From Escherichia coli (GTDB lineage Bacteria; Pseudomonadota; Gammaproteobacteria; Enterobacterales; Enterobacteriaceae): DNA of 64,000 nucleotides. Location: the NCBI RefSeq assembly GCF_009931435.1, contig NZ_CP043414.1. One strand, given 5' to 3'. The first letter of the stretch is position 1, and each line of letters begins with the position of its first letter. The notes beneath the pieces were generated by a model. The model did not search any database. It saw nothing but the letters and a program-made list of their open reading frames with translations, and was not told the origin of the DNA. The position numbers and the translations under genes are program-made. Positions 37,271-42,747 of this stretch are shown here, piece by piece.

Positions 37271-37565
37271 ATGCGTCTCCCGGAGTGGAATGCGGACGAA
37301 GTTATCATACCACTTTATTCAAGGGTATGCCATCGTTCATATATAATTATGGTGATTGAATTAATATAATAAATTAATATTGTGAATATTTATAAATTCC
37401 TAAAAATTAAGTGTTGCCATTGTGAAAATCACTATGTTTCAGTAACTTAATTCTTTACTTTTAAATTTAATCTTCACTAAAAATGCTTTTTTATATTGAC
37501 TTACAATAGGTCTACATTTCTAATGCACTAACTTTTTGGAAACAATACTATAAGATCAAATTTAT

Positions 37566-38282
37566 ATGGTGGCGAAAATTAACTTCTTATCACGGCTTAC
37601 GCCGCTTTTATTCGTGTTCGCTCCTTTTTTTGCACAGTCAAATATGACTGTTTATCCTATGGCTGTTTCCATTAATAGCCTGGGTGAAGGCAACGTTCGC
37701 GTTATATCTAAAAGTAATGAAGTTCAGTATATTAAGGCGACAGTATTCCGTATCGATAATCCATCGACGCCTCAGGAAAATGAAGTTGAGATTAAATCCG
37801 GTGATGCAAATCATCTGGTTGTGATGCCACCCAAATTCGCCTTACCAGCCGGTAGTAGCAAAACCGTGCGCTTTGTCGCGATGGAACCAGAGCAAAAAGA
37901 GAAAAACTATCGCGTTAAATTTGAAGCGGTTCCCAGTATTGATGACGTTGCCACGGATAAAAAAGATCTCTCTATGCAGTTAACAGTTAATTTAATTTGG
38001 GGGATTGTTGTTAGTGTTCCACCTCAGCAACCTATTGCTAAGTTAGAAGTAAGCCCTGCCCAAAAATTATTAAATGCAGGGAATCAGCGCTTGAAAATTT
38101 TAACGATCGCTTATTGTAAAAATAATAGTAAAAATAATTGCAAGATACAGACCGTCAATAAAAACATTTTCCCTGGTCAGGAAAGAAGTTTAGAAGGCAT
38201 ATCTGGCTACGATAAAATCGTTGTCAAATATAATAACTGGATCACCAAGGACAATGGCGAGTTTGAACTGGCGGTTCATTAA
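37566..38282 (+). CDS. Class 5 (alpha / CFA/I-CS1 family) fimbrial periplasmic chaperone, CfaA/CooB-like
   Basis: 238 aa with signal peptide; motif-level resemblance to CfaA (NMTVYP vs NFMIYP, EVQYIK vs EIQYIK, YRVKFEAVP vs YRVYFEAV, LTVNLIWG, NKNIFPGQ). First of four genes in the canonical chaperone-pilin-usher-adhesin order. Confidence 0.8.
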   Translation: MVAKINFLSRLTPLLFVFAPFFAQSNMTVYPMAVSINSLGEGNVRVISKSNEVQYIKATVFRIDNPSTPQENEVEIKSGDANHLVVMPPKFALPAGSSKTVRFVAMEPEQKEKNYRVKFEAVPSIDDVATDKKDLSMQLTVNLIWGIVVSVPPQQPIAKLEVSPAQKLLNAGNQRLKILTIAYCKNNSKNNCKIQTVNKNIFPGQERSLEGISGYDKIVVKYNNWITKDNGEFELAVH

Positions 38283-38311
38283 TTATCATTGTAATAAACA
38301 AAGGAATAGTA

Positions 38312-38812
38312 ATGAAAAAGGTATTCGCAAAATCTCTTCTGGTCGCGGCAATGTTTTCCGTTGCAGGTTCTGCATTAGCAGTACAAAAAGATATCACTGT
38401 TACTGCCAATGTTGATGCTGCTCTGGATATGACTCAGACAGATAACAGCGCACTGCCGAAAGCAGTTGAAATGCAATATCTGCCGGGGCAGGGCCTGCAA
38501 TCTTACCAGTTAATGACCAAAATCTGGTCAAATGACACGACCAAAGACGTGAAAATGCAGTTAGTTTCTCCTGCACAACTGGTTCAAAGCCTGGACGCTA
38601 CTAAAGTTGTTCCGCTGACTGTAACCTGGGGCGGTGAAGAGATTAAAGCTGATGCGGCAACCACTTTTACTGCAACAAAAATCTTTGCTTCCGATGCGTT
38701 AACTAACGGTTCGCTGGCTAAACCACTGATGTTTGCTCAAGCCACCAAAGGTGTTCTGGAAACAGGTATTTACAGTGGCGTAGTCAGCATTTATCTGTCC
38801 CAGGATATCTAA
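38312..38812 (+). CDS. Class 5 fimbrial major pilin subunit (CfaB/CooA-like)
   Basis: 166 aa; signal peptide MKKVFAKSLLVAAMFSVAGSALA; mature N-terminus VQKDITVTANVDAALD resembles the CS1/CFA/I pilin N-terminus; AAGGA RBS. Confidence 0.8.
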   Translation: MKKVFAKSLLVAAMFSVAGSALAVQKDITVTANVDAALDMTQTDNSALPKAVEMQYLPGQGLQSYQLMTKIWSNDTTKDVKMQLVSPAQLVQSLDATKVVPLTVTWGGEEIKADAATTFTATKIFASDALTNGSLAKPLMFAQATKGVLETGIYSGVVSIYLSQDI

Positions 38813-38840
38813 TCCTAATAACAGAATTAACATGTAATAA

Positions 38841-41587: not shown

Positions 41588-42660
41588 GAAAGCGATTGAT
41601 TGCAGGTATTTGGGGGATATTTTTCTCCGCTCAGTATGCCCAGTCTGCACCTGTTGTCACTGCAGAAGTGACATATGATTTAGCATCAGGAAGAGCAGAT
41701 TATTACTTCTGGAATCGAGAAGAACCACCAGCAAAAAATAAGTATGCGTCTTATTTATGTGCATTCTCTAATTTGCAGCAAACCTGTACCAGCAGCTCTA
41801 ACATGTCCACAGTGCAAATCTATATGACAGAACAGCGCAGTGGTATGCGTTGGCAGGTAAAACTTAAAGGATACATATCTGCACAAACATCAAGAGTCGG
41901 TTCAGATTGTGAAGGGTATACTAAACAACTCCCTCTTACTGATTATACCGGGTGGAATTGTAGAGATAACACGGGCACATATGGCGCGGACAGGAGACAA
42001 CTCACACTTTACCTTGAACAGGCTGAAATGAAGAAGCTACCGATCGGTGGCGTCTGGAAAGGGTCAGTGAAATTACATTTGAATAGCCCTTCACAGGACT
42101 ATTTTGCGGATATTACCCTGAATACCCTCGACCCCAATCATATAGACGTCTTCTTTCCTGAGTTTGCGCATGCCACGCCGCGTGTGCAGTTAGATTTACA
42201 TCCTACGGGCAGCGTCAATGGCAGCAATTACGCACAAGACCTGACCATGCTTGACATGTGCCTGTATGACGGTTTTAACGGTAATGGCCTCAGCTATGAA
42301 ATCTTGCTAAAAGATGAGGGGCGCGCGGCGGCGGGGCGCAACAATGGTGAATTCTCCATATATCGTCAGGGAGGCACGTCTACTGACGCAGCGGAACGTA
42401 TCGACTATCGCGTCAAAATGTCTAACCCGGAGACTGGCGGGCAAATCGACGTGCGCAACAATGAAAGTATCGTCTGGAACAATATCAATCTTAAACGTGT
42501 ACGTCCGGTAGTGTTGCCCGGCATTCGTTACGCAGTGATGTGTGTCCCCACACCACTGACGTTGGTGGTGGATAAATTTAACGTGACGGCAAAACAGGCT
42601 GGATATTACATGGGTAAATTGTCGGTAATATTTACCCCATCCTTGCCAACTATCAATTAA
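41584..42660 (+). CDS. Class 5 fimbrial minor subunit / tip adhesin (CfaE/CooD-like)
   Basis: 358 aa with signal peptide; start overlaps the usher stop (ATGA); GGGAGG RBS 8 nt upstream; size and position match CfaE/CooD. Confidence 0.7.
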   Translation: MRKRLIAGIWGIFFSAQYAQSAPVVTAEVTYDLASGRADYYFWNREEPPAKNKYASYLCAFSNLQQTCTSSSNMSTVQIYMTEQRSGMRWQVKLKGYISAQTSRVGSDCEGYTKQLPLTDYTGWNCRDNTGTYGADRRQLTLYLEQAEMKKLPIGGVWKGSVKLHLNSPSQDYFADITLNTLDPNHIDVFFPEFAHATPRVQLDLHPTGSVNGSNYAQDLTMLDMCLYDGFNGNGLSYEILLKDEGRAAAGRNNGEFSIYRQGGTSTDAAERIDYRVKMSNPETGGQIDVRNNESIVWNNINLKRVRPVVLPGIRYAVMCVPTPLTLVVDKFNVTAKQAGYYMGKLSVIFTPSLPTIN

Positions 42661-42700
42661 TCCTGTAACCCGGATAAACGGTTTGTTCTCTACAAACAAC

Positions 42701-42724
42701 GAAGCCGCCTGAACAGGCGGCTTC
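42701..42724. terminator. Hairpin shared by the convergent fimbrial operon and exuT
   Basis: gaagccgcc - tgaaca - ggcggcttc; the minus-strand transcript continues with GUUGUUUGU. Confidence 0.6.
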
Positions 42725-42747
42725 GTCATTACAACTTACGTTAAGCC

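Follow-up and report, generated by a model that had tools for sequence, protein, structure and literature searches.

Between exuR and exuT, the 64,000-nucleotide Escherichia coli window analysed here (the whole stretch taken from contig NZ_CP043414.1) carries four co-oriented open reading frames (ORFs) on the plus strand. These very probably represent an intact chromosomal alpha-fimbrial operon of the CS1-like/Eaf type (eafABCD), which would be assembled in the manner of its homologue CFA/I, persists as an old polymorphism and holds in this strain a rare adhesin allele. The gene order and the product sizes given in the original prediction (238, 166, 900 and 358 amino acids) agree with the program-made ORF list. 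The operon is structurally intact, with no internal stops or frameshifts in any of the four genes, including the usher gene, for which a missed frameshift had been considered. For eafC, the Prokaryotic Genome Annotation Pipeline (PGAP) starts the same protein at the ATG corresponding to 38903, yielding 894 amino acids instead of the 900 counted from the first ATG, and the start of eafD overlaps the stop of eafC by 4 nt (ATGA). exuR is transcribed divergently from the fimbrial genes, while eafD and exuT converge; the raw ORF of exuT extends further upstream than the annotation used in Table 1, and uxaC and then uxaA follow beyond it. In K-12, exuT and exuR are adjacent genes spaced by only 129 bp, as had been proposed for this chromosomal site. 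The lower GC content noticed earlier was also borne out: the flanks have 49-52%, whereas the operon has 44.7% and its upstream spacer 26.8%.

Table 1. Features of the exuR-exuT region, with positions counted from the first nucleotide of the window.
Feature	Position	Strand	Basis
exuR, hexuronate regulon repressor, left flank	36494-37270	-	ORF; exuR annotated in the near-identical R32_14_1F locus
Divergent regulatory spacer, AT-rich, 295 bp	37271-37565	.	GC 26.8%
Candidate sigma-70 promoter: -35 TTGACT (37496-37501), 17-nt spacer, -10 TCTAAT (37519-37524)	37496-37524	+	Read from sequence
eafA, CfaA-type periplasmic chaperone, 238 aa	37566-38282	+	PDB CfaA, Pfam PapD_N
eafB, CS1-type major pilin, 166 aa	38312-38812	+	Pfam Fimbrial_CS1
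Terminator-like hairpin AAGGGAGGAAATTCCTCCCTT, then CTTTT, in the pilin-usher gap	38840-38860	+	Consensus scan and RNA fold
eafC, outer-membrane usher, 900 aa from the first ATG	38885-41587	+	Pfam Usher_TcfC
eafD, two-domain tip adhesin/assembly initiator, CfaE/CblD family, 358 aa	41584-42660	+	Pfam CblD
Hypervariable receptor-binding (adhesin) domain of EafD, residues ~22-182	41647-42129	+	Assigned by CfaE alignment
GC-rich hairpin GAAGCCGCC-TGAACA-GGCGGCTTC between convergent eafD and exuT	42701-42724	.	Read from sequence
exuT, hexuronate transporter, right flank	42748-44046	-	ORF and R32_14_1F annotation

Each of the four products is a member of an alternate (alpha; CFA/I-CS1-Cbl-Tcf) chaperone-usher family, and every defining feature of that clade is present, including the co-oriented order chaperone, major pilin, usher and minor/tip subunit. 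The likeness to CfaA and to CS1 and CFA/I pilins, previously noticed at the level of motifs, thereby gained the support of database searches in which each product found its counterpart. EafA is a CfaA-type chaperone that matches CfaA structures in the PDB (4ncd, E=3e-34 over residues 15-236; 4y2o and 6k73, E~1e-30) and the Pfam family PapD_N (4.5e-7). EafB is a CS1-type pilin (Pfam Fimbrial_CS1, 4.8e-23; CfaB 6nrv, E=3.8e-23) that also matches the CS17 and CS1 pilin structures, and its mature N-terminus, the donor strand VQKDITVTANVD at residues 22-36, aligns with the CfaB donor strand VEKNITVTASVD. EafC is an usher of the TcfC/CooC type according to Pfam (Usher_TcfC, 3.3e-59; TcfC E-set, 1.3e-19; CooC_C, 8.8e-4) and to tblastn alignments over 96-97% of its length with CblC (33% identity), CsdC (29.8%) and CfaC (28.6-28.9%); a sequence search of the PDB with EafC gave no match. 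EafD is a two-domain tip adhesin/initiator of the CfaE/CblD type, matching Pfam CblD at 3.1e-98 and the CfaE sequence 2hb0 at E=6.8e-26. Its AlphaFold2 model (predicted local distance difference test score 87.7, predicted template modelling score 0.80) has CfaE 2hb0 as its best match among solved structures, over the full length (template modelling score 0.73, E=4e-24).

Based on this homology to CFA/I, we propose an assembly pathway in which EafA, as a chaperone of the CfaA type, would cap the subunits in the periplasm; the two-domain EafD would be the first to reach the EafC usher and would thereby start assembly; and the EafB pilins would polymerise by donor-strand exchange, each inserting VQKDITVTANVD into the preceding subunit. 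The expected product is a pilus with a single EafD at its tip.

Transcription of the operon would probably start from the candidate promoter TTGACT-17-TCTAAT, located in the 27%-GC spacer that the operon shares divergently with exuR. A consensus promoter scan missed the TCTAAT site, in which position 2 of the -10 hexamer is C. The 11 other alleles aligned, among them those of E. albertii (with TTTAAT as the -10) and Escherichia sp. E4742, all retain the hexamers and their spacing, while the spacer around them is only 47-90% identical among alleles. The first ~48 nt of the spacer are homologous to the region upstream of exuR in K-12 and the remainder occurs only in occupied alleles. exuR has a promoter-like site of its own on the minus strand (37333->37304). 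The terminator-like hairpin downstream of the pilin gene has a folding energy of -14.1 kcal/mol (z = -3.5; 0/200 shuffles as stable), and its stem is retained in other alleles despite sequence changes. It probably acts as an attenuator or stabilises the mRNA, thereby setting the pilin:usher ratio, and would keep the pilin in excess over the usher. The GC-rich hairpin at the other end of the operon is homologous to a hairpin in the 129-bp spacer of K-12; it terminates exuT and is probably also where the fimbrial transcript ends. The operon encodes no dedicated regulator. An ExuR/UxuR box (ATTGGTATACCAAT, probably an imprecise motif) was found with up to 3 mismatches neither in the spacer nor in the known exuT/uxaC control region; its matches occurred in the number expected by chance, and the idea of ExuR control was dropped.

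The operon is already known: it is a published locus, PGAP annotates it routinely, and identical proteins are present in RefSeq, where strain R32_14_1F has proteins 100% identical to all four products. The PGAP names are fimbria/pilus periplasmic chaperone and CS1 type fimbrial major subunit for eafA and eafB, and TcfC E-set like domain-containing protein and CfaE/CblD family pilus tip adhesin for eafC and eafD. Oshima et al. (2008) described a 'CS1-like' operon, ECSE_3375-3378, in strain SE11, conserved in E24377A, HS, ATCC 8739, 536 and SMS-3-5 with 71-100% amino acid identity (PMC2608844). Archer et al. (2011) described eafABCD between exuT and exuR in E. coli W, and reported that W and ATCC 8739 carry it, unlike K-12 and B (PMC3032704). 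The CS1-like operon (SE11 ECSE_3375-3378; Wurpel typing scheme) and eafABCD of W/ATCC 8739 correspond to each other and to the present operon in genes, order and site, and the window shows close nucleotide homology to the SE11/W/ATCC 8739 operon. In ATCC 8739 the operon likewise occupies the exuR-exuT site, and its products share with those of the window 95.8% (chaperone), 95.8% (pilin), 92.8% (usher) and 71.5% (adhesin) identity, with a nucleotide divergence of about 10-12% across eafA-C between the W/ATCC 8739 type and the window. According to Archer et al., the Eaf cluster has no tip adhesin (PMC3032704). This statement is contradicted by the CfaE match, the Pfam CblD assignment and the predicted CfaE-like fold of EafD, and the fourth gene clearly encodes a tip adhesin.

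Two published data sets touch on the biology of the locus. Usher and pilin transcripts were differentially expressed in Shiga toxin-producing E. coli (STEC), with higher levels in non-O157 STEC associated with haemolytic uraemic syndrome (PMC6033998), and detection of CS1-like by polymerase chain reaction (PCR) was associated with lower rather than upper urinary tract infection (PMC8249706). The CS1-like primers printed in the latter study map to the usher gene and delimit an amplicon of 755 bp, the published size, both in the window and in all alleles examined. At 40265-40283 and 41000-41019 of the window, the forward primer has 2 mismatches, including its 3'-terminal base, and the reverse primer has 1. 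This primer mismatch suggests that PCR surveys may miss or undercount the present allele. As a discovery the operon matters little, since the feature is ordinary and already described, and its modest value lies in the recognition of EafD as a genuine CfaE-type tip adhesin, in its rare hypervariable allele and in the primer mismatch.

What is particular to the window is the rare EafD adhesin allele. The Escherichia adhesin set falls into 19 clusters when clustered at 90%, among which EafD has a mean pairwise identity of 63% over residues 22-182, falling to only 37% for residues 94-140, whereas the pilin domain reaches 91.5%. The adhesin domain of the window is 55-71% identical to all other allele clusters, and the first half of its eafD has a nucleotide identity of 52-64% to every other allele type. 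Among 5426 complete E. coli genomes, the sample of the survey, this adhesin-domain allele occurs at >=97% identity in 3, with the next best match at 70.6%; for the whole operon region, 3 genomes are >=99% identical and 1910 fall at 80-90%. The receptor-binding half of EafD ranks among the more variable E. coli surface domains, and the Eaf allele series offers a ready-made panel for receptor mapping.

The original prediction had asked for a survey of the exuT-exuR site. The operon was matched there in 1919 of the 5426 genomes (1853 over >=80% of its length), and a K-12-type junction probe was contiguous, indicating an empty 129-bp spacer, in 3504. The site is essentially two-state because these genomes together account for 5423 of the 5426. 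An occupancy of 35% shows that the operon is not new. A 2.1-kb exuR-exuT 'remnant' in HH45 (NZ_CP116411.1, positions 3047-5123 of the extracted locus L004) was rejected as an assembly artefact of poly-G/poly-C low complexity. All 1923 places matched by the operon in the E. coli genomes are chromosomal. A copy of the Eaf usher (92.8% amino acid identity) is found at 198536-201172 of NZ_MG591698.1, a 353-kb E. coli 'plasmid' record that may be mislabelled or may stem from a very large plasmid with a piece of chromosome in it; it is the only close usher copy among the plasmid-collection records listed, and the overall count puts two records in the 90-95% band.

These data bear on the question whether the operon could be a recent, strain-specific islet, namely a class 5 colonisation factor of the type found in enterotoxigenic E. 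coli (ETEC) that moved from a plasmid to the chromosome and acts as a virulence determinant. Such an origin would fit the lower GC content of the operon compared with its flanks and the typical plasmid carriage of ETEC class 5 fimbriae, whose CfaC, CsdC and CsuC ushers are plasmid-encoded. However, 35% of complete E. coli genomes have the operon at this site, and their plasmids never carry it; it also lies between the same exuR and exuT genes in E. albertii and Escherichia sp. E4742; and its usher is only 28-30% identical to the ETEC ushers. Mobility functions are likewise missing, in line with the earlier remark that no integrase, transposase or tRNA flanks the operon. No tRNA was detected in 28000-52000 (10 kb either side of the region), no insertion sequence (IS) or integrase is present among the annotated neighbours of the near-identical R32_14_1F locus, which are ordinary core genes (yqjA, mzrA and yqjC-F on one side, exuT and uxaCA on the other), and the search around the region revealed neither terminal direct or inverted repeats above chance nor a target-site duplication at the junctions. 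A mobile-element origin of the operon was rejected because tRNA, terminal repeats above chance and target-site duplication are all lacking. Together with the lack of an Rns/CfaD-like gene and of an aligned counterpart to CfaE R181/R182 (see below), these observations refute a recent islet in practice, and we give it hardly any credence. Of the claim that the operon was 'inserted' between exuR and exuT, the location stands, and the word insertion is misleading in view of the same site in E. albertii and E4742 and of the deeply diverged alleles.

The age of the old chromosomal locus that we favour is also reflected in its substitution pattern. Between the window and other alleles, synonymous divergence (dS) in eafA-C is 0.4-0.6 (0.15-0.68 across three fully divergent alleles), compared with a median of 0.13 for 43 core genes of the window against K-12, and against the same three alleles eafD gives saturated values (>1.6), its conserved pilin domain being no exception. 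Because the ratio of nonsynonymous to synonymous divergence (dN/dS) stays at 0.05-0.12 in all four eaf genes across divergent alleles while dS is high, the genes are under purifying selection and the alleles are old. For the adhesin domain, dN/dS is not computable because dS is saturated.

An alternative reading in which the operon is a silent, decaying relic, intact here but never expressed and heading for the loss seen in K-12-like strains, draws on several points, some of which also count against the functional operon we favour. The operon is missing from 65% of the genomes, and in several others IS2, IS1, IS3-family elements or ISApl1 interrupt the usher or chaperone gene; in addition, the adhesin gene is frameshifted in STEC CFSAN027346 and in ChlosBP-23-1 (positions 8315-9389 and 8312-9385 of the respective loci L003 and L010). 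With such insertions and frameshifts the operon is often inactivated and hence dispensable in many hosts. No regulator is encoded, and the ribosome-binding site of eafA is weak, with no obvious Shine-Dalgarno sequence. The AT-rich spacer is typical of H-NS-silenced fimbrial promoters, and from its GC content of 27% we would guess that H-NS silences the operon. Other points limit the favoured reading alone: the operon promoter is only a sequence match, the saturation of dS in eafD makes the age estimate rough, and the open-access literature searched contains inventory mentions of the operon and no study of an Eaf pilus, its adhesion, its receptor or its function. Against a relic, dN/dS values of 0.05-0.12 over a dS of 0.4 to >1.6 in all four genes show long-term purifying selection on function, different species retain the hexamers of the promoter as well as the attenuator hairpin, and transcripts have been detected and found differentially expressed in STEC (PMC6033998). 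We consider a relic unlikely.

Comparisons of individual strains indicate how the intact, long-maintained operon may have spread. 2020CK-00188 is identical to the window except at ~41000-42600, where it carries another adhesin (eafA-C products 98-100% identical in amino acids, EafD 75%), and RMDEC465 differs from the window only in the promoter and chaperone (eafA) region. The Eaf alleles are, judging from such alignments, mosaics. 2013C-4282 and WL297 have the exuR/exuT haplotype of the window (20/20 and 50/53 diagnostic sites) together with the K-12-type empty spacer, and ATCC 8739 has K-12-type flanks around an occupied site, so that both states are found on both flank haplotypes. In all three Escherichia lineages examined, the occupied alleles have junction sequences in common, which retain homology to the empty 129-bp spacer despite strong divergence from it. 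For this reason we rejected the idea that the empty site arose by recent deletion from any of the sampled occupied alleles. We infer, short of proof, that presence or absence of the operon is an old polymorphism and that homologous recombination in exuR and exuT exchanges the two states, which would account for movement from strain to strain; the loss of linkage would reach as close as 30-50 nt to the coding boundaries. The receptor-binding domain exists as many deeply diverged alleles, with a rare one in the window. We tentatively consider, at less than even odds, that this is a long-lived balanced polymorphism in which presence/absence and at least 19 deeply diverged alleles of the EafD receptor domain are kept by host- or niche-specific selection, the allele of the window recognising a different receptor. 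For population genetics, the rare adhesin allele and the old polymorphism are of mild interest.

The flanking genes fit into the general divergence of the region from K-12. exuR has 93.2% nucleotide identity to its K-12 counterpart and a dS of 0.40, which no other well-conserved gene of the window exceeds, exuT has 96.0% nucleotide identity, and the 3.8-kb left flank is >=99% identical in only 18 of the 5426 genomes. Localised import behind the divergence of exuR was considered and found suggestive only, since its dS of 0.40 is not unique (fadH 0.33, ygjQ 0.30) in a window whose 55 kb compared as a whole with K-12 are 96-97% identical. Elsewhere in the window, the yhaB/yhaC region (14001-16500) is 75-88% identical to K-12, whose yhaB and yhaC genes have no gene-level blastn match, and the yhaI homologue (30487-30843) shows 84.7% nucleotide identity (dN 0.10, dS 0.54) between neighbours at 96-98%. 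The alx homologue (~49600-50600) has 965 nt versus 966 nt in K-12, which may be a frameshift or an extraction (end-extension) artefact.

Outside Escherichia, the nearest adhesins are 41-46% identical to EafD. Klebsiella, Enterobacter, Kluyvera and Citrobacter carry alpha-fimbrial operons with the same four-gene architecture at a conserved lysR-ygeA site, unlike Eaf in chromosomal position and with less than 50% identity. These operons occupy ~4000-9120 of each extracted locus (L016/L017 Klebsiella, L018 Enterobacter, L019 Kluyvera, L021 Citrobacter) and adjoin genes for an oligogalacturonide transporter, oligogalacturonate lyase or kduI/kduD. In Buttiauxella (L020), the operon lies at a third site, and two CfaE/CblD-family adhesin genes follow the usher gene ~1 kb apart (5809-6954 and 8001-9134). 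The Escherichia exuR-exuT site and the lysR-ygeA site both adjoin pectin/hexuronate catabolism genes, which may be coincidence; a link between alpha fimbriae and pectin/hexuronate use was dropped, since it holds in two of three independent contexts and lysR-ygeA is a single site common to four genera.

Among characterised systems, CFA/I of ETEC (CfaABCE), on which the structural picture of class 5 pili is based, shares with Eaf the gene order, the four protein families, the pilin donor-strand motif and the two-domain adhesin fold. In contrast, the ushers are only 28.6-28.9% identical and the adhesins 24% identical in structural alignment, and Eaf is chromosomal and lacks the Rns/CfaD activator. 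No gene for such an AraC-type activator is present among the neighbours of the operon, and with its chromosomal placement Eaf departs from ETEC class 5 fimbriae in regulator and plasmid carriage alike. The conserved arginine of CfaE/CooD (R181) likewise has no counterpart, as the CfaE motif VKRRYD (chain residues 158-163) stands opposite a gap in the EafD alignment (KLHLN----SPSQDY), in a segment that also varies among Eaf alleles. We take the arginines of this motif to be R181/R182 in the numbering of the CfaE literature, which are required for adherence. Eaf is not closely related to the ETEC class 5 fimbriae in the strict sense (5a-5c: CFA/I, CS1, CS2, CS4, CS14, CS17, CS19 and PCFO71) and is excluded from them because of its 28-30% usher identity, its scores below the family cut-offs, the lack of an Rns-like regulator and the unaligned R181/R182. 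The original assignment to class 5 (alpha, CFA/I-CS1-type) thus holds for the alpha clade and fails for the ETEC class 5 subclasses: Eaf is an alpha-clade relative outside them, and the relation is distant. EafC is closer to CblC of Burkholderia (33%) than to CsuC, CfaC and CsdC of ETEC (28.3-29.8%). The Burkholderia cable pilus (CblBACD) and Salmonella Tcf (TcfABCD) give the best NCBIfam matches (CblA and TcfA-D), with scores far under the equivalog cut-offs (in bits, TcfA 137/500, TcfB 99/384, CblA 118/225, TcfC 538/1428, TcfD 117/589). No Eaf protein reached the curated Tcf or Cbl cut-offs, which places Eaf outside both equivalog groups, and the genomic contexts are unlike as well. CblC (33%) and the Salmonella Tcf-like usher (31%) have the highest identity to EafC outside its homologues in Enterobacteriaceae.

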